A stretch of DNA of 64,000 nt from an uncultured Christensenella sp. (GTDB taxonomy: Bacteria; Bacillota; Clostridia; Christensenellales; UBA1242). The translations under genes and the position numbers were made by a program. Of the stretch, positions 19,861-50,507 are shown in pieces. The first letter of the stretch is position 1. The number at the start of each line of letters is the position of its first letter. The notes under the pieces are model-generated. The model saw nothing but the letters and a program-made list of their open reading frames with translations. It made no database searches and was not told where the DNA came from. The DNA lies in NCBI GenBank assembly GCA_949292875.1, contig CASFBJ010000020.1, positions 11,744 to 75,743 of the forward strand. Direction: 5' to 3'.

Positions 19861-19920
19861 AAAAAGAACTTGAAAATGGAATGGAACTTTTAAAAGCATT
19901 TCATAACAAGTTCTTTTTTT
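19861..19920. terminator. long hairpin terminator
   Basis: AAAAAGAACTTG (19861-19872) pairs with CAAGTTCTTTTT (19907-19918) and is followed by a T-run. Confidence 0.5.
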
Positions 19921-19974
19921 TCGTTTGTCATACATTTAGTAATAATATAATTTTAATGTGTATACTTATAAGGG

Positions 19975-20880
19975 TTACAATTCATAAAAATCTTTTCCTT
20001 TGCTCGCTTTTTGTGAAGACTTTCTTTTAGGATTTGGTTTAAGTTCTATTATATTGTGTTTTGTTATTGTACTTTGTTCTGCACTTTGTTTTGAATTAGA
20101 GTAAGATAACTTTTTATTACGAGCTAAACTCGCCGTTCTTACAGGTTTAAATAGTGCAATAATTAGTAGTAAGACAGGAATGGATATGCAAAGAATTATT
20201 GCTAATTGAGATGATGATGGAGGTGTAAAACCTAAACCGCCATCTTCTTTTTTTGTTGTAGACCAGTCATGCGCATCTATTGGGTTTGCGTCTAAACTAA
20301 GTCTATATATTTCTTTCATTTGGTCTGTTAGTCCTGCGTACACATATCCTTTAAGTGTACTATTGTTTTTTGTATAACTACAAAAATACCATATATCTCC
20401 TCTTTTTGAAACTACTTCTTCGCCTTGAATTTCTCCATAATATATGAAGTTGGTTTCATATAAGTCTAGTTCACAAAGCAGGGAATTTATTCCGTTTGAG
20501 CGTGAAGGCTCACTTCTTAGTTCTGCACTTTGACTTGCTAATATTCTAAAATTTATATTAGTTAAAAAAGGGACTGGTGGTGCATTTTGAACGCATTGTA
20601 TGTCGGCGGACTTTACATAACCTATTTGCTCTAAATATTTTGCCTTATAAAAGCCTTGTTCGTTTTCTTGTTGTAATAATTCTACATAGTATGTTGCAGG
20701 TATTTCAAAAATGGGTTTTCCATTTGGAGAATAGTACAGAAATACTCCTTCTTTTTGTATTTGAGCAAACTTATCCATTGAAGATTCTTCTGCATACAAG
20801 TTTGAAATGCTACTTTTGTAAGGAAAAATAAATATTAAACTAAAAGCAATAAAATACATTAGAATAAAATATTTTTTCAT
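19975..20880 (-). CDS. secreted/anchored protein with SH3b-like domains and a C-terminal TM plus basic tail
   Basis: 301 aa: a signal peptide, two ~70-aa beta-rich segments that look SH3b-like, a TM (LAIILCISIPVLLLIIALF) and a K/S-rich tail. Confidence 0.5.
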   Translation of the reverse strand: MKKYFILMYFIAFSLIFIFPYKSSISNLYAEESSMDKFAQIQKEGVFLYYSPNGKPIFEIPATYYVELLQQENEQGFYKAKYLEQIGYVKSADIQCVQNAPPVPFLTNINFRILASQSAELRSEPSRSNGINSLLCELDLYETNFIYYGEIQGEEVVSKRGDIWYFCSYTKNNSTLKGYVYAGLTDQMKEIYRLSLDANPIDAHDWSTTKKEDGGLGFTPPSSSQLAIILCISIPVLLLIIALFKPVRTASLARNKKLSYSNSKQSAEQSTITKHNIIELKPNPKRKSSQKASKGKDFYEL

Positions 20881-20975
20881 GCTTTTAATTTAGCACAGTT
20901 AAGATTTTTGTGGTTGTAAAAAATGTTTCAATATTATAAAGAATAAAGTAATTATACATAAAAATAGGAGCTATT

Positions 20976-26686: not shown

Positions 26687-29600
26687 ATGTTGCAAATTAA
26701 ATCAAACAAACATTTTAATCGCAAGATTTACATATTTGGTATAATTTGTGCTGTATGCCTCATTTTTTTAGGTTCAATAATCACTACTTTAGCGTTGTTT
26801 TCTTCAAGTAAAAAAGACTATATAGATATAAACTTTAATGATGAAAATGTAAAAATAGATGCAATTCTTAATCCTGATAGTACAGATGGATATGCTGATG
26901 TAACTTTATTAAAATTTTTTAAACCTTCTGTTGAAGTGCCTTATGTAGATTTGTTACAATCAGCGCAAATTACGCTTTCACAATCTTCAAGGTCTGCTTT
27001 AAATGCTCGTTTTAGAATAGGGTTTGAATATTATGATGCTCAAAATATAAATAATGAAAAACTACAAACTATTATTAGTTATTTGAACAATAGTGTAGAT
27101 TTTTCAAGTGTTGTTTCAACTAATCCTTATATTGGTTGTTCATGGGTTTTTAATGTTAGTTCTGGATATTATGAACTAAAAAGTGGAGATTCCTTAGCTG
27201 TATTAGATAGCTCTGCAAAAGAAATAACTATTTCTATGGTTGATAGTAGGGTAGTTTTTAGCGGAATAGAAAATCTGAATATTGATAAAAATTTGTTTAC
27301 AGGAGAGGATAAGAATATTTTTGAAAAAATTTCTCTTGCTGTGCAGTTTGAAATTGTAGATTCAGGTTCTAACTTTTCTATTAATGCGCCAACTTATTCA
27401 TATGGGAAAGTTGCTATATTTGATACAAATGGTGGAGATAAGATTGAGGCAAAACTTTTAACAGGTGATAATGTTGTCTTACCTAATGCAACTAAAGGTG
27501 GTCAAACATTTGATGGTTGGTATGGTGAGGCTGCATACAACACTCTTATAGGCCAAGCTGGACAAACTGTTGCGCAAACTGAAAAAAACAAAACATATTA
27601 TGCTAGTTTTTCTCCAACAAAATATGTTGTTACTTTAGATCCTAATGGCGGTATACTATATGGTTCAACTTCGTTACATATACTAAACAATGTACTCTTT
27701 GGAGAAGATTTTCTATCTTCGCCAGCTATAACATACAAGACAGGATATGAATTTTTAGGATATTTTGATGAAAATAACTTATGCTATATAAACGAAAAAG
27801 GCGAAGCTATAAGAAAATGGGATAAAACAGAGAGTGCTACACTAACGGCAAAATATTCTAATCCTTTAGTTTACAATATTGTCTACACAAATATAGAACC
27901 AGAAGCGTATTTTGGAGATGAAACCGTTTATGATTATACATTTGGTGATGTAAAAGTTGTGCCTAATCCTATAAAAGGCGGATACGATTTTGATGGTTGG
28001 TTAGTAAATGGGAATAGTAACCCTGTTAAAGATTTTACAATTAATGCAACAACAAGTGGTACTATATACCTAGAAGCAAAATTTACGCCAATCAATTATA
28101 CTGCGACTTTGACTTATGGTGGTACAACTTCTAATTTAACTTATAATATAGAAAGTGGCTTAACATTGCCTACTGTTTCCGCTTCATATGCAGGTTTTCA
28201 AGTACAATCAAAAGTAGGTAATTGGGAGCAAGGTGAAAGATATGCGGTAGGTAGTATAGTAACTCAAAGATTTGGAAATGTAACCCTTGTTGCAGTGAAT
28301 GCAATTGAAGGTATAATCTTTGATGGAAATACGAAAGATGATTTTTATGTAGAACCTATAGGTTTAGGCATTGATACAGATGCAACTGTTATTTTACCTA
28401 ATGCGTATAGAGATGGATATATTTTCCAGGGTTGGTACTTTGATTCTGCTTGCACACAGGTGTGTGAAAGAGTTTATAAAGTAGATTTAAGTGACTTTGA
28501 TGAAGAATACAAACTATATGCAAAATGGACTGCTGGAGAAGCAAAATATACAGTAACATTGCATAATGATAACGGTTTAGACCAAACTATAGAATTCACT
28601 CAAAATTCTGAAAAAAAAGGTACATTTAATATACCATCTACAATAGTACCTCCAGTAAAAAATGGTTATGTTTTTGCAGGATATTATACTAAAGAAAACA
28701 GTGAAGGATTTAAGTTTTATAACAATGCAGGGGCTTCTTTAATCGCAGAGTTTACAAACGCCTATACTACATCTTATGAGTATACCTACGATTTGTATGC
28801 TAGTTGGGTCCAAAATCTATACAGTATTACGTTTGATACTAATGGTGGAACTGCAGTTTCTACAATATACTATACTTCAAATACAGAAAGTGTAAATTAT
28901 CCTACAACAGCAAAATATGGATATACATTTAAAGGTTGGGAAATAGTTAGTCAAGATGGTAATTGGTCTACAACAACTATAGGTGTACAAGATGTAATTA
29001 ATACTTTAAACTTGTATGGCAATGTTGCGCTTAAGGCGATATTTGAACCAATTGTTTATAATGCTACATTCTATTATCTTGCATTAGATGATACAACAAA
29101 GCAATTTACAACTTTAACGCAAGCCGTTACATATACATTAGATGATACAGTCTTGACATTACCTTCAAATTCGTTAACAGGTCACTTATTTAAGGGCTGG
29201 GAAGTTACTTCTGGTATGGGTTCATGGAAACTAGGGCAATTATATGATGCAAGCACAACAACAATAAACTTAAACTCTAGTTACTATGGAGATGTAAACT
29301 TTACAGCAAGGTATGATGTTACAACTTATACTATAAATTTTGAATATCTACTTAATGGTGTAGTGCAAACAGGTGAAGAGTATGTACAAGCAACAAAACC
29401 TATATACTTTACATATCAAAACACATCTGTGACATTAAGAAATTTGTTAGATAATATTGGTTACGAGTTTAATGCTTGGAAACCAAAGGCAAATGCGGGT
29501 GCTTGGCAAACTACTGAATCATTTATGTCTGGCGAAGTTGTGTCAATTACAGCGGATAGATTGTATAATGTAACATTAGTTTCTGATATTACTAAATTTT

Positions 29601-32509
29601 TTGATAGCGGTGATGGCAGCACATCTAATCCATTTATAATAAAGACTTCTGACCAATTGCATAATTTAAGTACTGTAATAAATTCTCCTACACTTTATCA
29701 AAAATATAGTTCATTATCATACGAACTAGGTGGAGATATTATGATTGTAGGTGATACGAAAACATCTGTAAGTATTGATGGTACAAACCATAATGGTATA
29801 TTTGTTTCTATAGGTACTACAAGTTATCCATTTAAAGGAATATTTGATGGTAAGGGATATACTATTTCTAATCTAATTACGGCAACAAGTCAAAAAAGGA
29901 GCAGTGGGCTTTTTGGTCTTACAGATGGCGCAACTATTAGAAATGTAAATCTTGAAGGTGCTAAGATTTATTCAAGTAACTCTGGTGCAGGGGCAATTGT
30001 TGCTTATGCTATTAATAGAACCTTAATCGAAAATTGTCATAATAATTCAACGACGGGAACTATTTTAAGTATTGCTAATAATGTTGGTGGAATAGTAGGT
30101 GAAATGTATAATTCAACAATAAAAAATAGTTCTAATAAGTCTTCTGTAAGTGGTTATAATCAATTAGGCGGAGTAGTTGGCGGTGTCTATGAAAATTCGG
30201 TTGTGTACAATGTTGCAAATTATGGTAGCATTTATGCAAATAAGATTGGTAGCAATGCATATGATGTAGGAGGAGTTATCGGTAAGATTGGAGGGTCCGC
30301 TTCTACTCAAACTACATGGGGTTCTTGTATTGCTATTAATCTATATAATGCAGGCGCTATTACTACTAAACAAGGTTCAAATTATTCATCTGCTGTAGGT
30401 ACAATTGTTGGTTATAAAGGATATGCTTCGTATGTTTTTAATGCGTATTCTGATGGTGTTCTCACATATTATGGTACAAATACTGGTCCAGGTGGTGGCA
30501 TAGGTTCTGGTCGTTATAATGAACAAAATGATACAACTCAGTCAGCAAATGGTTTAAGGAATATATATTACAAAGAAAATACATATATAAGAACAGATGG
30601 AACAACAAATACTTATGTAAATGACTCTAATGTAGATGGATACAACTTAAGTGAAAATGCAATAATAGGAAATGGTGTAAATATCATTACAGATTATGCA
30701 ATATATGGTACAAAAGCATTTGCTTCGCTTGCAACACTATTTAATGCGTGGATATATGATTTAGTAAATATGTCTGGCCTTATGCCACCAAGGCATTATA
30801 CTATGGGTAGTGATAGTTATGTAGATTACGACTCATTATATGAGTATATACAAGTTTTAGGGTTTAGTAATGATGACTTAAATTATTGGATAAAATCTAC
30901 AACGCCTACCAAAACTGCATACATAACTCAACCAAAAGATGGCTTAACTTCTATATATTTTAAAATAGTAGATTTGAATGGCGGTAGTTTAAATGGTACA
31001 TATTCTAGAGTTTATGGCAAAGTTGTGAAATCTGATGGAACTCTTTTATATGAAGATTCTGAAATTATTTATAAAAAAGATTTTACAAGAAGTGGCTACA
31101 GATTTGTTGGTTTAAATACTCAACCTGATGGTAAAGGAACTTTTATAAATCCTCAAACAAATACCAATGGCGAATATTATAATATTACAGTTGGAGATGT
31201 GGTTGGTGTTGAGAAATATTATGCTGTATGGGAAAGACTTTTTGCAGAAGGTGAAGGTACTAAAGAAAAGCCTTACATGATTTCAAATGGTCAACATTTA
31301 GTGAATTTGGCACAACTTGTAAAATCTAATGCAGATAATGGTGCATATGCAACTGCTTATTATCACCAATCTTCAGAAATTCATTTGGAAGATTTTGAAG
31401 GCTTTGCTCCAATAGGAACCAGTACATATCCTTTTAAAGGTTATTATTACGGATATAACAAGATTATATATAATGACAAAATTGATTTGGCAAGTACGGA
31501 TAATGTTGGCTTATTTGGTTATACAAGTGGCGCTACACTTATGTCCATAAAGGTGTATTTCTCAAATGGTATAAAAGGTAAAAATAATGTTGGTGGTATA
31601 GTAGGCTATGCTAAAGACACTATAATTATTGATTGTGAAAATCAATCTACAAATATGACAGGAACAAATTATGTAGGTGGGATAGCGGGCTACTTGATTA
31701 AGTCTAGTGGAACATCTATGATTATAAATTCTAGGTCATCTGCTAATGTTACAGGAACTAATAATGTTGGCGGTTTAGTTGGCCGTGCAGATAATAGTAT
31801 AATTGAAAATAATGTTTTACATAGTACAAGGACAATAAAAGGCACAACAAATGTTGGTGGAGTATGTGGATATATGGTGTCTACAAAAATATTGAATATA
31901 GTTGTTCATCATATTGTATCATGTACAAATACTGCAGTCTCTGGTAAGTTAGTTGGTGTAATCGGAGGTACTGCCAGTGCAAGCACACTATCTTACTGTT
32001 ATTATAATAGTGCTGTAAATACACAGTTGCAGAATGTGGGAACGGGTACAGGATTTACTTCAAGCATTGTAGTAGGGTACGCACCGTCTTCACCATATAA
32101 ATTGAGTAGTAGTCAAACAATAGGAGGGTATACGGCTCAAACCGTGTATCAGGCAATGCATTTATATATAGAACATATTACTCATGCAAGTGCTTCAACT
32201 TATATACTTGGCTATTGGACTAATAGTTCGGGAGGCATTACTCCTTATCCAAATACTTATACATCTTATATGGTGGTGGTTACATTTTGTACAAATGCAG
32301 ATGTTAATTGGTCTGTATTCCCAGTACAAAGTGGATACAGAAATTTTGAACTTGAAGCACCAACAAAACCAACTAGAACAGGTTATACTTTCCTCGGTTG
32401 GTATGATGCGAGTGGTAATCAAATAATAAATGCATCAAATGAAATAGTAGGGGGAACTTATTTAGTTTCAAAAAATATGATTTTGTATGCAAAGTGGCAA
32501 TCTGCGTAA
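26687..32509 (+). CDS. giant cell-surface protein: N-terminal signal anchor, many Listeria-Bacteroides (Flg_new/InlB B-repeat) domains and two blocks of GLUG-type repeats
   Basis: 1940 aa, RBS AGGAGGG. Repeated G[YH]xFxGW[YE] motifs include GQTFDGWYG, GYEFLGYFD, GYDFDGWLV, GYIFQGWYF, GYVFAGYYT, GYTFKGWEI, GHLFKGWEV, GYEFNAWKP, GYRFVGLN and GYTFLGWYD. Runs of NVGGIVG, QLGGVVGG, YVGGIAG, NVGGLVG and NVGGVCG form the GLUG-like blocks. No LPXTG motif was seen. Confidence 0.85.
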   Translation: MLQIKSNKHFNRKIYIFGIICAVCLIFLGSIITTLALFSSSKKDYIDINFNDENVKIDAILNPDSTDGYADVTLLKFFKPSVEVPYVDLLQSAQITLSQSSRSALNARFRIGFEYYDAQNINNEKLQTIISYLNNSVDFSSVVSTNPYIGCSWVFNVSSGYYELKSGDSLAVLDSSAKEITISMVDSRVVFSGIENLNIDKNLFTGEDKNIFEKISLAVQFEIVDSGSNFSINAPTYSYGKVAIFDTNGGDKIEAKLLTGDNVVLPNATKGGQTFDGWYGEAAYNTLIGQAGQTVAQTEKNKTYYASFSPTKYVVTLDPNGGILYGSTSLHILNNVLFGEDFLSSPAITYKTGYEFLGYFDENNLCYINEKGEAIRKWDKTESATLTAKYSNPLVYNIVYTNIEPEAYFGDETVYDYTFGDVKVVPNPIKGGYDFDGWLVNGNSNPVKDFTINATTSGTIYLEAKFTPINYTATLTYGGTTSNLTYNIESGLTLPTVSASYAGFQVQSKVGNWEQGERYAVGSIVTQRFGNVTLVAVNAIEGIIFDGNTKDDFYVEPIGLGIDTDATVILPNAYRDGYIFQGWYFDSACTQVCERVYKVDLSDFDEEYKLYAKWTAGEAKYTVTLHNDNGLDQTIEFTQNSEKKGTFNIPSTIVPPVKNGYVFAGYYTKENSEGFKFYNNAGASLIAEFTNAYTTSYEYTYDLYASWVQNLYSITFDTNGGTAVSTIYYTSNTESVNYPTTAKYGYTFKGWEIVSQDGNWSTTTIGVQDVINTLNLYGNVALKAIFEPIVYNATFYYLALDDTTKQFTTLTQAVTYTLDDTVLTLPSNSLTGHLFKGWEVTSGMGSWKLGQLYDASTTTINLNSSYYGDVNFTARYDVTTYTINFEYLLNGVVQTGEEYVQATKPIYFTYQNTSVTLRNLLDNIGYEFNAWKPKANAGAWQTTESFMSGEVVSITADRLYNVTLVSDITKFFDSGDGSTSNPFIIKTSDQLHNLSTVINSPTLYQKYSSLSYELGGDIMIVGDTKTSVSIDGTNHNGIFVSIGTTSYPFKGIFDGKGYTISNLITATSQKRSSGLFGLTDGATIRNVNLEGAKIYSSNSGAGAIVAYAINRTLIENCHNNSTTGTILSIANNVGGIVGEMYNSTIKNSSNKSSVSGYNQLGGVVGGVYENSVVYNVANYGSIYANKIGSNAYDVGGVIGKIGGSASTQTTWGSCIAINLYNAGAITTKQGSNYSSAVGTIVGYKGYASYVFNAYSDGVLTYYGTNTGPGGGIGSGRYNEQNDTTQSANGLRNIYYKENTYIRTDGTTNTYVNDSNVDGYNLSENAIIGNGVNIITDYAIYGTKAFASLATLFNAWIYDLVNMSGLMPPRHYTMGSDSYVDYDSLYEYIQVLGFSNDDLNYWIKSTTPTKTAYITQPKDGLTSIYFKIVDLNGGSLNGTYSRVYGKVVKSDGTLLYEDSEIIYKKDFTRSGYRFVGLNTQPDGKGTFINPQTNTNGEYYNITVGDVVGVEKYYAVWERLFAEGEGTKEKPYMISNGQHLVNLAQLVKSNADNGAYATAYYHQSSEIHLEDFEGFAPIGTSTYPFKGYYYGYNKIIYNDKIDLASTDNVGLFGYTSGATLMSIKVYFSNGIKGKNNVGGIVGYAKDTIIIDCENQSTNMTGTNYVGGIAGYLIKSSGTSMIINSRSSANVTGTNNVGGLVGRADNSIIENNVLHSTRTIKGTTNVGGVCGYMVSTKILNIVVHHIVSCTNTAVSGKLVGVIGGTASASTLSYCYYNSAVNTQLQNVGTGTGFTSSIVVGYAPSSPYKLSSSQTIGGYTAQTVYQAMHLYIEHITHASASTYILGYWTNSSGGITPYPNTYTSYMVVVTFCTNADVNWSVFPVQSGYRNFELEAPTKPTRTGYTFLGWYDASGNQIINASNEIVGGTYLVSKNMILYAKWQSA

Positions 32510-40662: not shown

Positions 40663-40793
40663 GTTATATAATTATGTCTAAATTTTTAATTCAAGACTAA
40701 TTTTTTTAATTTTCAAAAAAAGTTGTCCTACCTTTTGTAAGTTTTTGTTTTTTATATGCTAGTATTTTGGCGAATGTGGTAAAGGAGGAGTTT

Positions 40794-41057
40794 ATGGACG
40801 AGCAAGAAGATTTAAAGTCTTTACTACTTAAAAAAGCGAACGGATATGATGTGGAAGAGGTAGTTGAAGAGTATAGTGATGTTGATGGTGAGCTCGTACT
40901 AGTTAAAAAAAAGATAACTCACAAACACATTCCTCCAGATACTGCACTTTTAAAACTCCTTGTTGAAAGTAAAGATGAAGAAAATGAAGATTTAAGTAAT
41001 TACACTGAAGAAGAATTAAAACAAATGCTTAAAGATTTGGTAAAAGATGAGAATTAG
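40794..41057 (+). CDS. terminase small subunit-like protein (C-terminal core only; no N-terminal HTH)
   Basis: ATG at 40794 with RBS AGGAGG (40783-40788). GYDVEEVVEEY...KKKITHKHIPPDTALLKLL resembles the GYEYEE...K.hPPD..A..f.LKN core of Firmicutes phage small terminases, as I recall it. Its position immediately 5' of the portal supports the call. Confidence 0.5.
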   Translation: MDEQEDLKSLLLKKANGYDVEEVVEEYSDVDGELVLVKKKITHKHIPPDTALLKLLVESKDEENEDLSNYTEEELKQMLKDLVKDEN

Positions 41058-41065
41058 CGGAGGTA

Positions 41066-42925
41066 ATGATGAAAAAAAACGAAGTAAAAGAAGATAAGGC
41101 AGAACTTATAAAATCTATCAAAGAAGATTTGTATAGAAGACAATTAGATAGAAAAAAATTAGAGATGCAATGGAAATTGAACTTAAATTTTTTATCAGGT
41201 AATCAATATTCTACTTTAAATGGTAATGATGAAATTATAGATTCAATAAAAAGATACGATTGGGAAGAAAAAAAGGTCTACAATCACTTGAGCGGTTTAC
41301 TTGAGGTTAGACAAAGTAAATTGTGTGCAAATAAGCCAACAATTACAGTAATACCAGCAAGTAGCGATAGCAAAGATATGGCAACTGCTAGAACTTGCCA
41401 ATCTATTTGCCAGTCTTTATGGCATAAAAACAGGCTGTCCGAACTTATAGCAAAAGCTATAAGCTGGAGTGAGTCTTGCGGTACTGTTTTTTATAAAGTT
41501 ACATGGAATAGCGAACTTGGAGATGTTTTATTAAATGAAAATGGAAAAGAGATTTATAGTGGAGATGTAAAAATAGATGTTGTATCTCCATTTGAAATTT
41601 TTCCGCAAAATATTGCTTATGAAAACTTAGAAGATAATGAAAGTATAATTCATGCAAGAGCTTTTACTGTAACTAAAATAAAAGATATGTATGGCATAGA
41701 TGTAAAGGGTGAAAAAATAGATTCATTTGGAATTATGCGAGATGATTTGCAAGATATTATATCTCCGTATAAAGCAAATGCGGGCAAAATTCAAGAGGAA
41801 GAATATGCTTTAGTTATAGAAAAATATATTTTACCAACAAGGGAAATGCCTAATGGTAGACTTATCATAATTTGTGGTGAACATGTTTGTTATGATGGGG
41901 AATTGCCTTATATAAATGTTACACATAAAAAAAGGGGATATCCATTTATCAGGCAAGTTGCTTATCCTTTAGCAGGTTGTTTCTTTGGCATAAGTGTAGT
42001 TGAAAGAGCTATACCATTACAAAAAGACTACAATGCTTTAAAAAATAGGAAAATGGAATTTTTAAATAGGTTATGTATGGGTGTACTTCTTGCTGAAGAT
42101 GGTGCTGTAGATATAGACAATATAGAAGAAGAAGGGCTAGAACCTGGAAAAGTTATAGTCTATAGGCAAGGAGCCAATCCGCCTATGTTTATGCCGACAA
42201 ATAATATACCTGTAGATTTTGACTCTGAAGAAGCAAGAATAATAAATGAATTTAGTGCAATTACAGGTGTAAATGATTTGGTTAGACAAGGTAACGTAAA
42301 TGTTAGTAATATTAGCGGTACTGCATTACAAATACTTCTAGAACAAGAAACTGCAAGACTTAGTGTGAGTGCAGATAGTATAGGTCATGCTGTTTGCGAA
42401 ATAGCGACGCAAGTTTTAAGATTATATAAACAGTTTGCTACTTTTCCTAGAATTTTAAAATTGGTAGGAGAGAAAGGAAGTATAGATGCTATTTGCTTTA
42501 GTTCAAGAGATATAACTACAGATGATGTTGTTATAGATAATCAATCAGAAACAATTACTACAAAAGCACAACAAAGAAGTTTAATATTTGAGATTTTATC
42601 TTCTGGTGTACTACAAAATGAAGAAGGAAAACTAAGCAATACAACAAGACAGAAGATTATAGATATGCTAGGACTAGGCATATATGATATGGGTAATGAC
42701 ATTACATCATTGCAATTAAAATATGCTCAAAAAGAAAATATAGACTTTACTAATGGTAAAACAGATGTGTTTGTTCAAGAAATAGATGACCATGATATGC
42801 ACATAAAAGAACATTCCTGCTTGTTACTTGGTGCTGAAGGCGATAGATTAAGAAAAAATGGCATGTATGAAAAAGTTATGGAACATATTAGAGAACATAA
42901 AAAATTTAAATCATTAACAAATTAA
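41066..42925 (+). CDS. phage portal protein
   Basis: 619 aa, RBS GGAGG. The N-terminal portal-like pattern is QWKLNLNFLSGNQY...NKPTITVIPASSDSKDMATA...GTVFYKVTWN. Size and position upstream of the scaffold and capsid genes fit. Confidence 0.75.
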   Translation: MMKKNEVKEDKAELIKSIKEDLYRRQLDRKKLEMQWKLNLNFLSGNQYSTLNGNDEIIDSIKRYDWEEKKVYNHLSGLLEVRQSKLCANKPTITVIPASSDSKDMATARTCQSICQSLWHKNRLSELIAKAISWSESCGTVFYKVTWNSELGDVLLNENGKEIYSGDVKIDVVSPFEIFPQNIAYENLEDNESIIHARAFTVTKIKDMYGIDVKGEKIDSFGIMRDDLQDIISPYKANAGKIQEEEYALVIEKYILPTREMPNGRLIIICGEHVCYDGELPYINVTHKKRGYPFIRQVAYPLAGCFFGISVVERAIPLQKDYNALKNRKMEFLNRLCMGVLLAEDGAVDIDNIEEEGLEPGKVIVYRQGANPPMFMPTNNIPVDFDSEEARIINEFSAITGVNDLVRQGNVNVSNISGTALQILLEQETARLSVSADSIGHAVCEIATQVLRLYKQFATFPRILKLVGEKGSIDAICFSSRDITTDDVVIDNQSETITTKAQQRSLIFEILSSGVLQNEEGKLSNTTRQKIIDMLGLGIYDMGNDITSLQLKYAQKENIDFTNGKTDVFVQEIDDHDMHIKEHSCLLLGAEGDRLRKNGMYEKVMEHIREHKKFKSLTN

Positions 42926-42936
42926 AAGGAGATTAT

Positions 42937-43647
42937 ATGGAAATATTAGAACAACCTAAAGATGTACAAGAAGATGTATCTATAGAGAAAGAAGATTTGT
43001 CTTATGATAAATCTGCTGAAGATGATAAGAGCGCTCAACTAGAAAATGAAAGAAAAGATATAGATGAAAGTACTTCAAATATGGGCTCTAATTTGCTTGG
43101 CAAGTTTAAAGATGTAGATGAGTTGACTAAGGCTTATAACAGTTTGCAAGCTGAGTTTACTAGGAAATGTCAAAAACTTAAATTGTTAGAAAAAAAACAA
43201 GAACAAGAATCTTCCGAGGCACAAAATAAAACAACATATGACACAAAGGATAGTAATGTGCCTATCTATCTGCAAGAAGATTATAGAGAAAAAGTTACAG
43301 AGTTTATAACAAATAATCCATATGCTAAGCAATATGCAAAAGATATAAGTAAAGAAATAATGCAAGATTCATCTCTAACATTGCAGGGTGCTTATAATAA
43401 AGTGCTTGCAAAAAAGTATAGAGAACCTAAGGAACTTTTGCAAGATAAAAACTTCATTGAAGATTATATACTTAATGATGAGAACCTAAAAAAAGAGTTA
43501 GTAAAAAAATATGTAGAAGAAGTCAAAGAATCAAAAGTACCTTATCTTATTTCAGGTAATACTGGTATAAGTGCTGGTACAAAGGATATTGAAATCTCAA
43601 ATCTTGAGGAAGCGAATAAACTAGCTTTAAAACTTTTTAGGGGATAG
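42937..43647 (+). CDS. putative scaffolding protein
   Basis: 236 aa, acidic and predicted helical/coiled. It sits between the portal and capsid genes. RBS AAGGAG. Confidence 0.5.
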   Translation: MEILEQPKDVQEDVSIEKEDLSYDKSAEDDKSAQLENERKDIDESTSNMGSNLLGKFKDVDELTKAYNSLQAEFTRKCQKLKLLEKKQEQESSEAQNKTTYDTKDSNVPIYLQEDYREKVTEFITNNPYAKQYAKDISKEIMQDSSLTLQGAYNKVLAKKYREPKELLQDKNFIEDYILNDENLKKELVKKYVEEVKESKVPYLISGNTGISAGTKDIEISNLEEANKLALKLFRG

Positions 43648-43734
43648 TAATTTTAAAATGATTATAAAAATTAAAATTAAATGAAAAATTTAAAGAACAA
43701 AACGATATTTAATATAAAAAAGGAGTGTTTTTTA

Positions 43735-44904
43735 ATGGTAACTTTAGAAACTGCGGAAAATGCGTTAAAGACTATATACTTAGGTGTAGTTTCAAATCAA
43801 TTAAATATAGGAGTAAACCCTTTGCTTGCAAGAATAGAACAAACTACAAGCGATGTATGGGGTAATGAAATAAGAAAGTTGGCTCCTTATGGATTAAATG
43901 GTGGAGTTGGTGCTGGTACTGAGATAGGCCCATTGCCAAGTGCTTTTCAAAATCAATATGTTAAGTTTGTATCTGAACTTAAAAACCTATATGGTACAAT
44001 AAATATATCTGATAAAGCAATCCGTTCATCTAGTCATAGTGCTGGTGCATTTGTAAATTTGTTAAACGCTGAAATGGAAGGACTTATTAAGGCTAGCCAA
44101 TTTAACTTTGGAAGAATGTTATATGGTGATGGTTCTGGTTTATTAGGAACAGTGTCAGCATTTAGTGATAGTAAAATAACATTAGATTCAGTTAAGAATT
44201 TTATGGAAGGAATGGTTATAGATATAATTAATGCTGATGATGTTAAAGTAAGTAAAGCTAGAGTAGTATATGTAGATAGGGTAAATAAGCAAGTTACTTT
44301 GTCAAATGTGTCTGAATATACATATGCTGAAGGTGATAAGGCATATGTACAAGGTAGTAAGGATAATGAAATCACAGGACTTGGAAGTATATTCTCTGAC
44401 TCTGCAACGCTTTATGGTGTAAATAAAACTCAATATCCATGGATGAATTCTTATAAAAAAGATTCTGTAGGAAATATTAGTGATTCAGTTATTCAAACTG
44501 CAATAGATTTTATGGATGAAACAAGTGGTAGTATTGTAGACTTTATTGCTTGTAGTAGTGATGTAAAAAGAGCTTATCAAGAATATCTAGGTGAATATAG
44601 AAGAAATATAGATGTTATGGAGCTAAATGGTGGTTTCAAGGCATTAACTTATAATGGTATACCTGTAGTTAGTGATAGGTTTATCAATGATGGAACAATG
44701 TACCTTTTAAATACTAAAGAGTTTGCATTACATCAATTATGTGATTGGAAGTGGCTTGAAGGTGAGAGTGGAAAGATTATAAAACAAGATGCTAATTCTC
44801 CGACATACACTGCTACATTAGTTAAGTATGCAGATTTAATCTGTAATAAACCTAATGGACAAGCTAGACTATCTGGCATAACAGGAAAGGGTTTAGGCGC
44901 TTAA
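43735..44904 (+). CDS. phage major capsid protein
   Basis: I prefer the ATG at 43735 (RBS AGGAG at 43721-43725), giving about 389 aa. The size, the position, and a C-terminal pattern typical of tailed-phage capsid proteins (PTYTATLVKYADLICNKPNGQARL) support the call. A strong hairpin lies immediately downstream. Confidence 0.7.
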   Translation: MVTLETAENALKTIYLGVVSNQLNIGVNPLLARIEQTTSDVWGNEIRKLAPYGLNGGVGAGTEIGPLPSAFQNQYVKFVSELKNLYGTINISDKAIRSSSHSAGAFVNLLNAEMEGLIKASQFNFGRMLYGDGSGLLGTVSAFSDSKITLDSVKNFMEGMVIDIINADDVKVSKARVVYVDRVNKQVTLSNVSEYTYAEGDKAYVQGSKDNEITGLGSIFSDSATLYGVNKTQYPWMNSYKKDSVGNISDSVIQTAIDFMDETSGSIVDFIACSSDVKRAYQEYLGEYRRNIDVMELNGGFKALTYNGIPVVSDRFINDGTMYLLNTKEFALHQLCDWKWLEGESGKIIKQDANSPTYTATLVKYADLICNKPNGQARLSGITGKGLGA

Positions 44905-44925
44905 TTATAATATAAAGAAAATAAA

Positions 44926-44964
44926 ATGTGTATGTTTTCTTATTTTAGAAACATACACATTTTT
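44926..44964 (+). terminator. strong hairpin (terminator or attenuator) immediately after the capsid gene
   Basis: ATGTGTATGTTTTCT pairs with AGAAACATACACAT (~14 bp, one bulge), then TTTT. This is the placement commonly seen after highly expressed phage capsid genes. Confidence 0.6.
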
Positions 44965-44983
44965 AAAATTAAAGGAAAAATAT

Positions 44984-45313
44984 ATGCTTAAAATAATAGA
45001 AAATGATGTGTTTAATATATCTAATAGGGTAAAAAATATAGATAAAAATTATTTGATATTTTATAATACTATAAAAAGAAGATTTGAAATTCATTATAAA
45101 AAAGGTTTAGTTACTTGTTTGGAAGTTGTTGTTCGTTATCCTACCTTAGATTATAGGGTTATAGTTGATTTACAAAAAAATAGAAGTTTTAGAATTGAAA
45201 AAATTATGCAAGAGATTGAAATGCATAATAAAAAAATTCAAGAAAGTGAAAATGAAAATATAAAAAATGATTTAATTTCAAAAGTAAAAGTCATGATGCT
45301 AAAGGGGGTATAG
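44984..45313 (+). CDS. hypothetical phage-module protein
   Basis: 109 aa, RBS AAAGGA. No motif recognised. Confidence 0.45.
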   Translation: MLKIIENDVFNISNRVKNIDKNYLIFYNTIKRRFEIHYKKGLVTCLEVVVRYPTLDYRVIVDLQKNRSFRIEKIMQEIEMHNKKIQESENENIKNDLISKVKVMMLKGV

Positions 45314-45317
45314 AGTT

Positions 45318-45872
45318 GTGAATGTAAATAAAATATTGCAAATTTCATTAAAGTATCTTAATAAGGAACATTTAATTAAAGAATTAGAAAGTGAAAATGT
45401 TAATGACAATGCTGAATTGATTCAATTATTAGATGTTCTTAACGCTGTTGTAAAAAAAGTGGCAACAGAGTACATTTATTGCATTGCAGAAAAAGAGATA
45501 TATGTAGATTATACTGGTAAATATAGTTTAACTTCTTTACCTAAAAAATTTTATGCTGTAAGGAAGCTTAAAAATCATTTAGGTTTAAAATCAAAATATA
45601 GAGAAGAAGATGGATACTTACTATTAAAACCTGGCAAGTATGATTTAACTTATATATATACTCCACAGGAAGTAAATTTTCAAGATGAAATAACAAGTTT
45701 TCCATCTGTTTTAGTTGATGAAGCTTTAGCTTTAGGTGTAGTTGCAGAATATTTTTTGAAATATGGCTTTTTTGAAGAGTATGAAATATACGAATACAAA
45801 TTTCAAGATAAGATGAAAAAATGTGCTCAAAGATATGACGAAGTTAAGTGGAAGGATAAAATATGGGTATAG
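45318..45872 (+). CDS. putative head-completion/adaptor protein (assigned by position only)
   Basis: 184 aa, GTG start after AAGGGGG. Its size and position correspond to P22 gp4-type adaptors. No sequence-level proof. Confidence 0.35.
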   Translation: MNVNKILQISLKYLNKEHLIKELESENVNDNAELIQLLDVLNAVVKKVATEYIYCIAEKEIYVDYTGKYSLTSLPKKFYAVRKLKNHLGLKSKYREEDGYLLLKPGKYDLTYIYTPQEVNFQDEITSFPSVLVDEALALGVVAEYFLKYGFFEEYEIYEYKFQDKMKKCAQRYDEVKWKDKIWV

Positions 45873-47383
45873 CAAAAAATCAATATAAAAAATTAGGGGT
45901 AAATAGAAATTCGTATTCATTTGATTTTAATTACTTTCTAAATGGAATGAACTCTAGTATAGATGAAAGTATACAATCTGTATCTAATGCTTATTCTATT
46001 AAAAATTTTACAGTAAAAAAAGGTGTACTATCTACAGGACTAGGTTTAAGAATACTTACTTTTCCTAGTGATATGGAAGATGGCGCTGAAACACCTTATG
46101 AGCATACATATACAGGACAAGCATTAAGTGTTTATTCTTTTCCTTATTATGATGTACTTGCTAAAAAAGATAGAGATATGCTTTTCATATATACTTCAGA
46201 CCATTTGCTATACTACATGAAATATTCATCACCATATAGACCATTTTTTAAGTATAGTTGTCCCGAGTTTACTTCAATTCCTGATTATCTATATTATATA
46301 ATGCCTGACGGAAAAGAGTCCGGATTATTTTGTTCTGAGAATGAGCCTTTAACACTATTAAACTTTTTTGTCAATTATAAAGTTGTGGAAAATGCTCCAT
46401 CTATAACAAATTTGTGCGTGCATTATGATAGAGTGTTTGCTGTTACTCGTATAGGTAGAAGCAAAGTTTGGTTTAGTGATGAAATGGACCCTACAAATTG
46501 GAATATATCCAGTACTGAAGGCGGTTATATAGGTATGAATGATTCTTTAGGAGATTGTAAAAAAGTTTTGTCTTTCAATAACTATGTTTTTGTTTTTAGA
46601 GAATATGGAATAACAAGAATAACTGCTTACGCTTCTCAAGAAAGTTTTAGTATGCAAAATGTATACGCTTCATCAAATTATATATATACAAATACAGCTT
46701 GTATTTGTGGCGATGTAATTTGCTTTTTAGCAACTGATGGATTATATATGTTTGATGGAGTTAATGCTAAGAAAGTAAATGCAGGATTTGAAAAAATATA
46801 TGAAGGGATAAATCAAGACAAAGCAAAAGGCGTTTTTTATAAAAATAGCTATTATTTGATGATGAATACAAACTTAGCACCTATAAACGAATTGCAAAAT
46901 GTAAAAAATACGCTTTTACGATATGATTGTGAAGATGGTTTATACGATATTTTAACAAATGTAGAACTTATGGATATAGAAAAGATGACAAGTTCTGGTA
47001 TAGAACGATTGGTAAGTATAGATATACAATCTCATGAGGGAGAAGAAGGATTTGAAACAAGACTAAGTCAAATAAATTATTTTGGAGATGTGTATGGCAA
47101 AAGTACTGAGAAAGAATGGATTAGTCCCTATACAGATTTGGGTAAGCCTGATTACACTAAAAATATATATGCCATAGCATTGCAAACAACTTATGATTGT
47201 GATGTTGAAATAATTACAGACAAAATGAGTCAAATAGTTCATTTTAAAGGTAGCGATAAAGCTCAAAGAAAGCCCGTATTTGTAAGTGGAGTAATGATTA
47301 AAATTAAAATTTCTACACAAGAAAACGAGGCAATGATATCTCATCCTATCTTGTATTACAGGTTAGGAAAAGCAAATGCTTAA
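45863..47383 (+). CDS. putative tail-hub/stabilisation protein (assigned by position only)
   Basis: 506 aa, overlapping the previous ORF by 10 nt. Its size and position correspond to P22 gp10-type proteins. Appears beta-rich. Confidence 0.35.
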   Translation: MGIAKNQYKKLGVNRNSYSFDFNYFLNGMNSSIDESIQSVSNAYSIKNFTVKKGVLSTGLGLRILTFPSDMEDGAETPYEHTYTGQALSVYSFPYYDVLAKKDRDMLFIYTSDHLLYYMKYSSPYRPFFKYSCPEFTSIPDYLYYIMPDGKESGLFCSENEPLTLLNFFVNYKVVENAPSITNLCVHYDRVFAVTRIGRSKVWFSDEMDPTNWNISSTEGGYIGMNDSLGDCKKVLSFNNYVFVFREYGITRITAYASQESFSMQNVYASSNYIYTNTACICGDVICFLATDGLYMFDGVNAKKVNAGFEKIYEGINQDKAKGVFYKNSYYLMMNTNLAPINELQNVKNTLLRYDCEDGLYDILTNVELMDIEKMTSSGIERLVSIDIQSHEGEEGFETRLSQINYFGDVYGKSTEKEWISPYTDLGKPDYTKNIYAIALQTTYDCDVEIITDKMSQIVHFKGSDKAQRKPVFVSGVMIKIKISTQENEAMISHPILYYRLGKANA

Positions 47384-47450
47384 TGAAAAATTTGCACAAG
47401 AATTGAATATGATTTTGCGTGCTAATTACATAAAAAAAGGAGGGCATATA

Positions 47451-48386
47451 ATGGCTAAATTATTTGCTGATAATTCAAAAATAATAGATGAAGTAAAAAA
47501 ACAAAAACAAGATGTGATAGATAAGATTAAAGGAATAGATTCTACATTAAACCTTAATCCTATACCAGAAAAACCAGAATATGTTAGTGATGTTACATAT
47601 CTTGATGAGAAGAAATATGATGAACAAGATATAAAAGATAAAGCGGAAAATAGTTTAAGTTCATACAAAAACCAAAATGAGTTTAACATAGAAAAAAATT
47701 ATCAAAATGAAAAAACAAAAAATGAACAAAATATAGAAGATACTTTAAAAGAATTAGCTTCTGGAGAAAAGGATATAAAAGATTTGGCAAACAAAGCAAA
47801 AGAAGAAGCTAAAGAAAACTCTGTATCTAGAGGTTTGGGAAATAGTAGCATATACTCAACAAAAATAGATGATATAGAAAATGAAAAAACTATAGCCTTA
47901 AGTGAAATAAAAAGTCAAGCAGAGTCAAAAGTTAATGATTTAAAAAGAAAAAGTGCAGACTTAGAAAGACAGAGGGATACTGCACTTGCAAACTTTGAAA
48001 TTGAATATGCTGTTAAGTTGCAAAAAGAAATAGATTCTTTGACAAATGATATAACAGACTATAATAATAAAATTGTTGAATATAACAACAAACTTAAGGA
48101 AAATGAAGCTAAGAAAAAAGCTGAGTTTGACGAAAAGTATAAAAAAGAAGTTGAAAGAGTAGAGGAAAGAAATCAAGAAATTTTAAAGTTTTTAGATAAG
48201 TACGGCTACGGAGCATTAAATGCACAAATAAATAAGCAAAAAGTAGATATTGTTAATGAATATTTAAATACTTTAGATAAACAAACTGCGTTACTTGTCC
48301 TTATGGAAGATGAAAGTTTTAAAAATCTTATTGGAGAAGCGGAGTTTAATAAAATACTCACTCAGGTTAAAGAGAGAAAATATTAA
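47451..48386 (+). CDS. coiled-coil structural protein (possible needle/plug analogue)
   Basis: I prefer the ATG at 47451 (RBS AGGAGGG at 47438-47444), giving about 311 aa. It is highly charged and looks heptad-like (KE-rich) throughout. Confidence 0.4.
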   Translation: MAKLFADNSKIIDEVKKQKQDVIDKIKGIDSTLNLNPIPEKPEYVSDVTYLDEKKYDEQDIKDKAENSLSSYKNQNEFNIEKNYQNEKTKNEQNIEDTLKELASGEKDIKDLANKAKEEAKENSVSRGLGNSSIYSTKIDDIENEKTIALSEIKSQAESKVNDLKRKSADLERQRDTALANFEIEYAVKLQKEIDSLTNDITDYNNKIVEYNNKLKENEAKKKAEFDEKYKKEVERVEERNQEILKFLDKYGYGALNAQINKQKVDIVNEYLNTLDKQTALLVLMEDESFKNLIGEAEFNKILTQVKERKY

Positions 48387-48595
48387 TGTGGGAAGAAGTA
48401 TTAAGAGTTGCAATATCTAACGGAATATGGGCAGTTCTTTTTGTTGCTTTGCTTATTTATCAATTAAGAGATAGCTCTGCAAGAGAAGAAAAGTATCAAA
48501 AAACTATTGAAATTCTAACAGAAAAGTATGCGGTAATAGAAGATATAAAAGAAGATATACAAGATATAAAATTATCTTTGAATGGTAAGGAATAA
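48386..48595 (+). CDS. BhlA/UviB-family holin-like peptide
   Basis: 69 aa; its ATG overlaps the previous TAA (TAATG). GIWAVLFVALLIYQLRDSSAREEKYQKTIEILTEKY closely parallels the UviB/BhlA pattern (G.FA.LF..LL.Y......RE.KY...I..L), as I recall those sequences. Confidence 0.7.
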   Translation: MWEEVLRVAISNGIWAVLFVALLIYQLRDSSAREEKYQKTIEILTEKYAVIEDIKEDIQDIKLSLNGKE

Positions 48596-48919
48596 ATGAA
48601 AATTTTTTCAAATTACAAATTTTATTTAATTATCGCATACACAATAACTCTTATAGTATACAATGTTTGTCAAAGTTGTGGAATTATAGTTAGTGAAAGT
48701 TTTATTTTAAATATAATGTCTTACATACTAAGCATGCTAATAGCTTACAATGTTATAACAATAAATTCCAATAAGTCTGCCGATGAAATAAAGCAAGATT
48801 TAGAAGATATTTCAAATACTATAAATAGTGAAACGAATGAAGAAAATGTGCAAGATGAAAATAACGATGAAACACAAGAAACTAATCTTTGTAATGAAAC
48901 AAATGTAGACAAAAATTAA
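48596..48919 (+). CDS. small two-TM membrane protein with an acidic tail (possible second holin-like component)
   Basis: 107 aa, starting 1 nt after the previous stop. It has two hydrophobic helices and a D/E/N-rich C-terminus. Confidence 0.4.
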   Translation: MKIFSNYKFYLIIAYTITLIVYNVCQSCGIIVSESFILNIMSYILSMLIAYNVITINSNKSADEIKQDLEDISNTINSETNEENVQDENNDETQETNLCNETNVDKN

Positions 48920-48975: not shown

Positions 48976-49003
48976 AAAAAGGAACAATTGTTCCTTTTTT
49001 TTT
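48976..49003 (+). terminator. intrinsic terminator closing the phage-like module
   Basis: AAAAA-GGAAC, loop AATT, GTTCC, then TTTTTTTTT. Confidence 0.75.
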
Positions 49004-49160: not shown

Positions 49161-50507
49161 ATGGAAGATGTAATTTTACCTAATTTAGAAGAATTAAGCA
49201 TTTATCAATTAAGAGCACTAGGAAGACAAGTAGGTGTTTGCTTACCTACAACATTAAAAAAACAAGATTTAATAAATAAAATTAGAGCTATAATGAGTGG
49301 AGCAGAAATGCCCTATGTTAAAACAACAAATAAGGGACGACCAGCAAAAGATGTAATAGATATAGACTTTATGAAAGCAACAGAAGAAGCATTTATGGGA
49401 TTAGATTCTAGTTATAAAACATCTTTGCCAGATTTGGCGTCTTACGAAACTTTGAAACCTAAAGATTATGCTAATTATGAAGAAAGCGTAGAAATGGGTT
49501 TAATTGAGATAAGTAGAGAGGGAAGTGGCTACTTGATGACTGTACCACAAACCATGAACGAGCCTATATATGTAAAGAGAACAACCGTTAGTGAGTTGAA
49601 TTTAAAGTCTGGAGATTTTTTAAGAGCTACTGTTATACAAGATGAGAAAAAAAATGTAGCATTTGTAAAAGATGTTATATCTATAAACGGACAAAAAAGC
49701 AAAAGCAGTTTACAAAATTATTCATTTGAAAGTGAAGAATCTTTATTAGAAAAAACACAAATAGTTAATGACGATACAAATGACAATTTCAAAAAACTAA
49801 AAAATATAGTTAAAACTTATTTGGGAGATAGGGTACTTTTGTATACTCCGGAAAAAAAGAGTGTACCCTATGTTATGTACGACACTATATCTATTCTTAG
49901 TAAAAATAATGCAATTACAGACATTGTATATTTGGGATTAAATGTAAATGCTGAGCTTGCTACTATGTTGCAAAGTTTTGAAAAAGTAACTCTAATTGCT
50001 TCAAAATTTGGAGATGCTCAAAACTATCAAAAAAAATTAGTTGAATTGGCTTTTAAACATGTGAATAATATTTCAAATATTCAAAGCAAAAATGTTGTCT
50101 TTGTTGTTCAAAATTTAAGTGAAGTTATCTCATTGTTTACAGACGAGAAAAAGACATACTTTAGTGACTATTGTAAGAAGTTTTTTTCAAAAGCAAAGCA
50201 AACAAGAAATGGCTCACTTACTATAGCCTATAATATAGTAGGAGATGAGGTTTTGCTTGATGAATACGAAACAAATGAAAATGTATTGTTAAAGTATTTG
50301 CCATATAAATGCTTGACAAATTGCTTTATAAAGTATAACCTTATAGAAAGTCATAGAACAGAATTCTTTTTGACTTATGCGAAAGACGATTTTAAAGAAA
50401 AGATTTTATCTTATCTAGAAAATGGGGATTATTGTTTAAAACATATTGAACTTGAAAAACTTATTAAGACACAATCATTAGATGTAGATGTATCTACGCT
50501 AATCTAG
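49161..50507 (+). CDS. Rho-like protein with degenerate ATPase motifs (probable pseudo-ATPase)
   Basis: 448 aa, RBS AAGGAGG. The Rho_N/SAP-like segment is LEELSIYQLRALGRQVGV...KKQDLINKIRAI. The Rho RNA-binding-domain-like segment is GLIEISREGSGYLMT...IYVKRTTVSELNLKSGDFLRATV. The C-terminal domain aligns with the Rho RecA core, but Walker A reads LGDRVLLYTPEKKSV (E. coli GQRGLIVAPPKAGKT) and Walker B reads NVVFVVQNLSE (E. coli DVIILLDSITR). Confidence 0.7.
   Translation: MEDVILPNLEELSIYQLRALGRQVGVCLPTTLKKQDLINKIRAIMSGAEMPYVKTTNKGRPAKDVIDIDFMKATEEAFMGLDSSYKTSLPDLASYETLKPKDYANYEESVEMGLIEISREGSGYLMTVPQTMNEPIYVKRTTVSELNLKSGDFLRATVIQDEKKNVAFVKDVISINGQKSKSSLQNYSFESEESLLEKTQIVNDDTNDNFKKLKNIVKTYLGDRVLLYTPEKKSVPYVMYDTISILSKNNAITDIVYLGLNVNAELATMLQSFEKVTLIASKFGDAQNYQKKLVELAFKHVNNISNIQSKNVVFVVQNLSEVISLFTDEKKTYFSDYCKKFFSKAKQTRNGSLTIAYNIVGDEVLLDEYETNENVLLKYLPYKCLTNCFIKYNLIESHRTEFFLTYAKDDFKEKILSYLENGDYCLKHIELEKLIKTQSLDVDVSTLI

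Follow-up and report, generated by a model that had tools for sequence, protein, structure and literature searches.

A two-locus, podovirus-derived gene cluster of Christensenellales-type Clostridia, a probable gene transfer agent-like system fixed in the chromosome

In this study, we analysed a 64-kb stretch of DNA from an uncultured Christensenella sp. (in its full length referred to as the window), which carries at positions 40767-48919 an 8.2-kb block of phage-type genes. It has been proposed in a preliminary description of this DNA that the block is a phage head and tail-hub module from which every non-structural phage function is missing. We show here that this last statement does not hold, as the block ends with two holin genes and an intact gene for the large terminase TerL is present elsewhere in the window. 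The system in the window consists of two loci, namely TerL with a neighbouring gene for an SH3b-like protein (19975-22427) and the portal-to-holin operon (40794-48919) (Table 1). We consider it likely that the block represents the operon for structure and lysis of a podovirus-derived particle system, which in Christensenellales-type Clostridia is fixed in the chromosome, inherited vertically and similar to the gene transfer agents (GTAs).

The ORF list of the window contains ten co-directional open reading frames (ORFs) in the block, at the coordinates given previously. Not all of them are separated by the gaps or overlaps of 0-12 nt that had been reported, as the gene for the major capsid protein (MCP) is bordered by gaps of ~87 nt and ~79 nt. 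On the left the block is flanked by genes for a Polysacc_synt/MurJ-like flippase and for YetF and DUF4363 proteins, and on the right by a gene for a Rho_N/Rho_RNA_bind protein, followed by rpoZ, rpmG, secE and nusG; these flanks had been named correctly, and the hairpin behind the capsid gene and the closing terminator that had been described are both real. The base composition of the block (~0.25-0.31 GC) is the same as that of the remaining window, no att-like repeats were found around it, and Pfam, PHROG and NCBIfam annotation gave no integrase anywhere in the 64 kb, so that the earlier statements on these three points are upheld within the window.

The identification of the portal and capsid genes is borne out by profile searches. 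The portal protein matches the Pfam families P22_portal (PF16510, 1e-16) and SU10_portal (PF23899, 1e-7) as well as phrog_156 (3e-34), and in a comparison of its profile with the PDB it matches the portal of phage GP4 (8jov, 1.5e-8). For the MCP, matches were obtained to NCBIfam NF033394 capsid_maj_Podo (2e-80) and phrog_14242 (3.5e-56); its start has been placed at the ATG at 43735 because the alignments of all homologs begin at residue 19 of the longer ORF, which agrees with the size of ~389 aa estimated before. The acidic, scaffold-like protein encoded between the two gave no family match in Pfam and PHROG searches. In every locus its gene is placed between those of the portal and the MCP, and its family is present in 79 of the 83 related loci that were fetched for comparison and on which the counts of gene order and families are based (L-numbers are labels of fetched loci). 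A hairpin equivalent to that behind the MCP gene, but of different sequence, was found with z < -3 in 46 of 62 loci. Conservation in position and not in sequence fits a selected attenuator, and the hairpin probably acts as an attenuator or partial terminator which sets the stoichiometry of head to neck proteins.

The two small genes that follow code for candidate neck proteins. For the 109-aa family no match was found in Pfam, PHROG or PDB profile searches, and for the 184-aa family none in PHROG or the PDB. When the small-protein families were compared by hhalign with their positional counterparts in Microbacterium phage Shocker, weak or no signal was obtained; the 184-aa family aligned over its full length but weakly (E 0.03) with the Shocker 'tail tube protein'. 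The 184-aa gene lies directly 5' of the nozzle gene and overlaps it by 10 nt, and a role of its product as a gp4-like adaptor is plausible. The 506-aa protein encoded next gave an all-beta AlphaFold2 model (21-sequence alignment; pLDDT 87.6, pTM 0.88), for which the best Foldseek match in the PDB is the tail complex of Pa223 (E 5e-22, TM-score 0.70); further matches are to VP1, GP4, SU10, PhiM1, T7 gp12 and chain 9jg6_a of the P22 tail complex (470 aa, E 6e-13), which we take to be gp10 and which matches less well than Pa223, VP1 and GP4. The protein also matches phrog_3287 (virion structural protein) weakly and, as judged from the model, it is a podovirus-type tail nozzle.

The DUF7934 protein probably starts at the ATG at 47451, giving 311 aa as in locus L001 and as proposed before. 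In its AlphaFold2 model (pLDDT 87) a long helical hairpin is formed by residues 95-151 and 158-297, one of the helices being ~140 residues long, and in Foldseek the model matched generic coiled coils only. An analogy of the block to the late operon of phage P22 had been drawn in the preliminary description, and this stands for the portal and for the gp10-like nozzle; the idea of a gp26-type needle is unsupported because the DUF7934 model has no specific structural relative. In the virion the protein could serve as plug, as fibre or in the interior, and its gene holds the position of an abundant 'TolA-like' virion protein in the GTA of Faecalibacterium prausnitzii (FpGTA). The two genes closing the operon had been recognized as a BhlA/UviB holin-like gene and a gene for a small membrane protein, and the latter can now be related to Phage_holin_1.

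The remaining functions concern DNA packaging. The first gene of the operon probably starts at the ATG at 40794, ahead of which there is an AAGGAGG ribosome-binding site. That its product is TerS-like, as had been suggested, is weakly indicated by the window protein alone (E 0.004) and more strongly by its family, of which 23 of 25 members match phrog_309 (TerS; best 1.2e-8) and 6 of 25 match phrog_23444 (TerS). The family aligns only with the C-terminal part of phrog_309 (positions ~199-241 of 319), which points to a truncated TerS-like protein without the N-terminal DNA-binding domain. Matches of the same family to designed repeat proteins, seen when its profile was compared with PDB sequences, are compositional and were not regarded as meaningful.

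The TerL gene of the window was found in a tblastn search for which the proteins encoded at a related locus served as queries. The protein matches Pfam Terminase_6N (7e-15), phrog_2 (1e-34), PHROGs of the nuclease half and the solved TerL structure 5oe8 (9e-8), and it retains the Walker A (GGNRSGKT), Walker B (FVWFDEE) and nuclease Asp motifs. It is 68% identical to the TerL encoded directly upstream of the portal gene in L002 and has the same divergent neighbour, and therefore the system is split in the window. The protein encoded by this neighbour has, as read from its sequence, an N-terminal signal or transmembrane segment, SH3b-like repeats, a second transmembrane segment and a basic tail, and its homologs in L085 and L086 give faint matches to Pfam SH3_3. 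In split systems its gene stays paired with TerL and not with the portal operon; the protein may function in cell-wall binding, in regulation or as a help in lysis. Between the two loci lie 18 kb of ordinary genes, coding for a cation efflux pump, a Mur ligase, a 1940-aa surface protein, tRNA-Asn, a response regulator and L19. With TerL so far upstream, the 8.2-kb block is only part of the system, which in its contiguous, ancestral form comprises ~11-15 kb.

Table 1. Genes and signals of the two loci, with positions in the window
Feature	Position	Strand	Basis or remark
SH3b-like membrane protein, 301 aa, divergent neighbour of TerL	19975-20880	-	homologous to TerL-divergent gene in 44-58 loci
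TerL, large terminase, 483 aa, intact	20976-22427	+	18.3 kb upstream of portal cluster
TerS-like protein, small, acidic, 87 aa from ATG 40794 (ORF opens TTG 40767)	40794-41057	+	family in 83 loci, conserved motif
Portal, 618-619 aa, P22/SU10 type	41066-42925	+	Pfam and PHROG profiles
Scaffold-like acidic protein, 236 aa	42937-43647	+	position and composition only
MCP, 389 aa, podovirus-type HK97 fold	43735-44904	+	NCBIfam and PHROG profiles
Stem-loop just 3' of MCP stop	44924-44962	+	dG -17.1 kcal/mol, z -3.5
Conserved protein, 109 aa, candidate head-completion or neck protein	44984-45313	+	family in 69 loci, always between MCP and 184-aa gene
Conserved protein, 184 aa, candidate portal-nozzle adaptor (gp4 / tubular protein A position)	45318-45872	+	family in 67 loci
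Tail nozzle/hub, 506 aa, beta-propeller type (from model)	45863-47383	+	AlphaFold2 model and Foldseek
DUF7934 coiled-coil protein, 311 aa from probable ATG 47451 (ORF opens 47376, 336 aa)	47451-48386	+	Pfam PF25588 7e-30; family in 47 loci
BhlA/UviB-type holin, 69 aa	48386-48595	+	Pfam Holin_BhlA 8e-20; family in 56 loci
Second holin-like membrane protein, 107 aa	48596-48919	+	same family as Phage_holin_1-annotated gene of L002 and L085; phrog_297 (holin) 1e-3
Bidirectional intrinsic terminator	48976-48999	.	10-bp stem (AAAAAGGAAC/GTTCCTTTTT) then T-run; ends operon

The cluster is widespread. More than 1400 portal homologs were detected, and the best 120 of these are all 615-645 aa in length and 44-71% identical, many of them being encoded on contigs of 100-900 kb. 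In a collection with one genome per species, at least 553 confirmed stretches contain the cluster, on contigs of up to 836 kb; among the carriers, which come from the guts of humans, ruminants, chickens and mice, are entries titled 'Christensenella sp. UBA...', 'Christensenellales bacterium', 'Candidatus Caccovivens' and 'Clostridia bacterium'. Several hundred species of uncultured gut Clostridia hence carry the cluster in their chromosomes. The common gene order in the 83 loci is (sigma-r4/DUF1492 activator) - (SH3b membrane protein, minus strand) - TerL - TerS-like - (~72 aa) - portal - scaffold - MCP - ~110-122 aa - ~188 aa - nozzle - (extra ORF) - DUF7934 - BhlA holin - second holin - (273 aa) - (316 aa). 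About half of the loci have TerL contiguous with the other genes. In some loci it is separated from them by ~5 kb, and in others, those of the lineage of the window included, by >10 kb.

The cluster often occupies fixed positions in the chromosome. In L001, L006 and L084, the portals of which are 63-68% identical to that of the window, the intact portal-to-holin block lies at exactly the same junction, with the flippase/YetF/DUF4363 genes on one side and the Rho-like/rpoZ/secE/nusG genes on the other, and no prophage is present there. In lineages with 46-47% portal identity to the window, the complete and uninterrupted cluster is found in a second fixed slot, extending from gyrA-deacetylase-SSB to RNase J, which is common to ~24 loci. 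Genes for integration, excision, repression, lysogeny or replication were detected neither in the window nor in the Pfam-annotated contexts of six relatives.

The cluster co-diverges with neighbouring host genes. Across 19-20 loci of the gyrA/SSB slot, pairwise distances between portals correlate with those between adjacent host genes (Mantel test, Spearman r 0.90, permutation p <= 5e-4), and the same test gave r 0.82 for TerL and r 0.54 for the MCP. The divergence of TerL is slower than that of the host flanks (mean amino-acid distance 0.32 versus 0.38). As comparisons of the window with its nearest relatives are saturated (dS 1.2-2), dN/dS was determined in pairs of close relatives elsewhere in the family with unsaturated dS of 0.1-0.9. 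Values of 0.02-0.06 were obtained for TerL, portal and MCP (portal 0.02-0.04), 0.06-0.14 for the nozzle, ~0.13 for DUF7934 and 0.10-0.37 for the scaffold-like protein; TerL, portal, MCP, nozzle and DUF7934 are thus all under purifying selection (0.02-0.15). The lengths of 96-99% of the portal, MCP, nozzle and 184-aa homologs (97% for the last) are within 15% of the median, and the genes of the window are typical in this respect. Vertical inheritance combined with purifying selection across a host clade, by which GTAs are judged, is therefore what we find.

No free phage closely related to the cluster has emerged from the databases. A profile scan of IMG/VR gave 63 loci, and each one of sufficient length for a judgement belongs to the same chromosomal cluster, in some cases flanked by gyrA/SSB/RNase J; outside the cluster, the nearest IMG/VR portal is 23% identical. 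About 60 'viral' contigs of this database (L087-L147) are fragments of the chromosomal cluster, and therefore virus-prediction pipelines label a host system as viral. Among GenBank phages, only 13 records were matched by the MCP at 25-28% identity, mostly 45-kb actinobacterial phages, for which the value is 26-28%. Judged by these sequence comparisons, the cluster corresponds to a podovirus head-neck-nozzle module that has been trimmed, and it has no close relative among the phages of IMG/VR or GenBank. In the literature, we found no paper describing it.

The surroundings of the two loci differ between lineages. In most full-length clusters a phage-type gene coding for a DUF1492/sigma-70-region-4 activator-like protein adjoins TerL (L002 6644-7216, L085 6661-7254, L086 6580-7161 and ~40 more loci); an HMM search of the window and ~20 kb of extra flanks, ~84 kb in total, gave no homolog. 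Where relatives carry this activator, the window has two genes for lysine-rich predicted membrane or coiled-coil proteins without Pfam or PHROG match (18563-19267 and 19276-19854, both +). The 192-aa ORF at 19276-19854 was considered as a sigma-like activator and rejected, since, like the other of the two, it shows no similarity to the activator of the relatives. Full-length clusters are further accompanied by large ORFs of 590-920 aa, ~316-380 aa, 273 aa and 316 aa without Pfam or PHROG match, the families of which occur in 19-25 loci (in L085, for example, 3851-6352 on the minus strand, 16223-17365, 19145-19966 and 19979-20929). These ORFs, none of which is present in the window, are candidates for fibres, receptor-binding proteins or lysis enzymes.

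Several observations were made on the DNA around the two loci. A promoter-like block, TTTTTGTC(C/A)-N24-(T/G)AT(A/G)TG-N-TAnnAT, is present at 40700-40766, 5' of the TerS-like gene; it is lineage-specific and has been kept in L001 and L084 ahead of the relocated operon. A universal promoter motif common to the AT-rich intergenic regions ahead of both TerL and the portal operon was not found. Beyond the terminator, the 448-aa protein encoded 5' of rpoZ (49161-50507, +) gives weak Rho_N and Rho_RNA_bind matches and has no recognizable ATPase domain, and may have only the N-terminal domain of Rho and not its motor; its position is kept in L001 (453 aa) and L084 (436 aa) at an identity of only ~35%. 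The surface protein encoded between the two loci (26687-32509, +) contains Listeria-Bacteroides (Flg_new) repeats and a GLUG motif, and its counterpart in L001, upstream of L19, is 3545 aa in length. At 12521-12990 lies a tmRNA gene with a tRNA-Ser gene directly after it; such a site is a classic hotspot of integration, and an integrase was not detected there. The region 12933-16923 holds several ORFs without family match (for example 14192-15355, 387 aa) and a gene for a transglutaminase-like protein.

Three explanations had been offered in the preliminary description: a domesticated GTA-like system, a satellite-like element and a truncated prophage. Our data strongly favour the first and disfavour the other two. 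The checks by which that description was to be refuted likewise speak for domestication, as relatives carry the intact module and no prophage at the junction and selection is purifying. According to the GTA-like reading, both loci would be transcribed upon a signal, and many relatives have the DUF1492/sigma-70-region-4 activator beside TerL. Portal, scaffold-like protein and MCP would build a procapsid, with the hairpin behind the MCP gene lowering read-through and thereby yielding more head proteins than neck and tail proteins. TerL, aided by the TerS remnant without DNA-binding domain, would package host DNA by a headful mechanism with little sequence specificity. The 109-aa, 184-aa, nozzle and DUF7934 proteins would close the portal vertex to form a very short tail, and the two holins would lyse the producer cell and release the particles. 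The delivery of DNA to recipients, which would complete the process, is the weakest link of this reading.

Several points weigh against such an interpretation. The cluster is known from genes alone, in this organism as in the clade, and the roles of the 109-aa, 184-aa and DUF7934 proteins have been deduced from position. The co-divergence test was made with host genes that are in physical linkage with the cluster, and the likeness to FpGTA is one of architecture and not of compared sequences. In addition, HMM searches showed that the activator gene and the 590-920-aa, 273-aa and 316-aa genes are absent from the window and from longer assemblies of the same species, and therefore the lineage of the window could have a reduced or differently wired system. 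A receptor-binding protein, tail fibre, ejection protein or endolysin was likewise not found in the window and ~20 kb of extra flanks taken from other assemblies of the same species.

These absences, of conserved accessory genes as well as of genes for recognition, ejection and endolysin, give room for a different view, in which the domesticated particle does not transfer genes but serves in PBSX-like killing or competition, programmed lysis or the release of extracellular DNA, or is a capsid for other cargo, the packaging of DNA being incidental. The BhlA/UviB-type holin family is tied to bacteriocin release in the annotation of phrog_2429, strong purifying selection shows that there is a function but not which one, and for FpGTA itself a PBSX-like role without transfer has been left open by its authors (PMC12946183). 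However, the cluster codes for a podovirus nozzle and not for a contractile killing machinery, and the additional large conserved proteins of relatives could be fibres. Furthermore, TerL is the slowest-evolving component and has kept its ATPase and nuclease motifs intact, which argues that DNA packaging itself is selected. We regard a non-transferring particle as unlikely.

We give little credence to the idea of a capsid-forming phage satellite or helper-dependent element, which would make its own heads and nozzle and obtain fibres, lysis enzymes and regulators from a co-resident phage. The compact set of head and neck genes, without fibre or endolysin genes nearby, would suit such an element, and the criteria for GTA candidates overlap with those for satellites (bioRxiv 10.64898/2026.07.08.737213). 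However, integrase, att repeats, replication or primase genes and helper-interference genes are absent in all annotated contexts, the same chromosomal slots are occupied across lineages with portals that are <50% identical, and the cluster co-diverges with its host flanks. Two loci 18 kb apart are also incompatible with excision and packaging as one unit. A prophage remnant without function, recently truncated or in decay, might be thought of because an autonomous tailed phage cannot fit in 8.2 kb and accessory genes of relatives are missing locally. This reading has hardly any probability left and is effectively refuted by the intact ten ORFs and TerL of family-typical lengths, dN/dS far below 1, the conservation of the cluster in the genomes of several hundred species, the junction being kept at 63-68% portal identity, and a site that is free of prophage in every relative.

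If the GTA-like reading is extended to the order as a whole, a single podovirus would have been domesticated in an ancestor of the Christensenellales and kept in a fixed slot as an order-wide GTA for as long as RcGTA, independently of FpGTA or distantly related to it. It would also be the machinery behind the packaging of 4-6 kb of DNA and behind the over-representation of Christensenellales in virus-like particle (VLP) fractions of human and mouse guts. We put this scenario forward tentatively and consider it somewhat less likely than not. Borkfalkiaceae, Pumilibacteraceae and CAG-917 are families of the Christensenellales in the GTDB. In a recent preprint on VLP DNA of mice, these three are prominent contributors (bioRxiv 10.64898/2026.07.08.737213). 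GTA-type packaging has also been seen in metagenome-assembled genomes of Christensenellaceae (HGM11616 sp900761075, 4.1 kb; QANA01 sp019420265, 6.3 kb) with no locus assigned to it, and homologs of FpGTA were searched in that study only in Faecalibacterium, Gemmiger and Subdoligranulum (PMC12946183). As such packaging has been observed without genes, the present cluster is the obvious candidate.

The cluster provides a concrete candidate locus, for which portal, MCP, TerL, nozzle and DUF7934 can serve as markers. If it is active, GTA-like elements would be common and ancient in abundant gut Bacillota, much of the 'bacterial contamination' of gut viromes would be explained, and virus-prediction tools would be seen to mislabel a host system systematically as viral, as in the 60-odd IMG/VR fragments. 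GTAs have been well characterized almost only in Alphaproteobacteria, and FpGTA, described in 2026, is the first example from the gut and the first podovirus-like one.

Among free phages, Microbacterium phage Shocker has the same order of terminase, two small ORFs, portal, a scaffold-position ORF, MCP and, further on, a 214-aa 'tail tube' and a 514-aa protein. The podoviruses P22, SU10, GP4 and Pa223 share with the cluster the P22/SU10-type portal and the nozzle fold, the portal of GP4 being the best match among solved structures. Unlike the cluster, free podoviruses have genomes of 40-45 kb with genes for replication, tailspike or fibre, ejection and endolysin, and P22 has a gp26 needle and a gp9 tailspike, neither of which has a counterpart here.

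PBSX of Bacillus subtilis is a myovirus-like element of ~28 kb with a contractile tail, which kills instead of transferring genes. Like the present cluster it is a domesticated phage-like element of a Gram-positive chromosome, and the packaging of host DNA and release by lysis would be further common traits; neither gene order nor tail type is shared. RcGTA of the Alphaproteobacteria is siphovirus-like and long-tailed, with ~15-17 head-tail genes and the host regulators CtrA and GafA. It resembles the cluster as an anciently domesticated tailed phage that has no integration or replication genes and is passed on vertically in a clade of the rank of an order, where it is subject to purifying selection, and also in having genes at more than one locus and a TerS without DNA-binding specificity; holin-dependent release by lysis would be a further likeness. 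In contrast to RcGTA, the cluster is podovirus-like and belongs to Bacillota, and the two have no homologous proteins beyond generic folds.

The closest parallel is FpGTA. Its main operon (proteins RCH50844-RCH50852) comprises 10.5 kb and ten ORFs, coding for a TerS without DNA-binding domain, TerL, portal, a scaffold-position protein, MCP, small ORFs, a tail nozzle and the abundant 'TolA-like' virion protein; a second operon with fibre, receptor-binding protein and lysis genes lies 125 kb away, and the particles have ~40-nm capsids containing 8.4-8.9 kb of host DNA (PMC12946183, Nat Commun 2026). Like FpGTA, the present cluster is chromosomal, non-replicating and podovirus-like, consists of about ten ORFs at more than one locus and is near-ubiquitous in a clade of gut Clostridia. 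The FpGTA-type architecture, with TerS without DNA-binding domain, TerL, portal, scaffold-position protein, MCP, small ORFs, nozzle and coiled-coil protein, is that of the contiguous form of the cluster, except that the TerS-like gene is downstream of TerL and that of FpGTA upstream. Faecalibacterium was not among the named matches in homolog searches with the portal, a representative MCP and DUF7934. The host orders differ, and the MCP of FpGTA is annotated as N4-gp56 family, whereas that of the cluster matches capsid_maj_Podo and not TIGR04387. In the cluster the holins are part of the main operon, with no second operon for fibre, receptor-binding protein and endolysin found in the window and ~20 kb of flanks, and the DUF1492/sigma-r4 activator and SH3b membrane protein beside TerL are, unlike in FpGTA, a feature of the present family. 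Particles have been proven for FpGTA, whereas the evidence for the present cluster, including that for packaging and lysis, comes from its genes. The cluster is a further podovirus-like GTA-like element of gut Clostridia, and to what is known from FpGTA it adds an element that is order-wide, anciently fixed and, in the lineage of the window, split.

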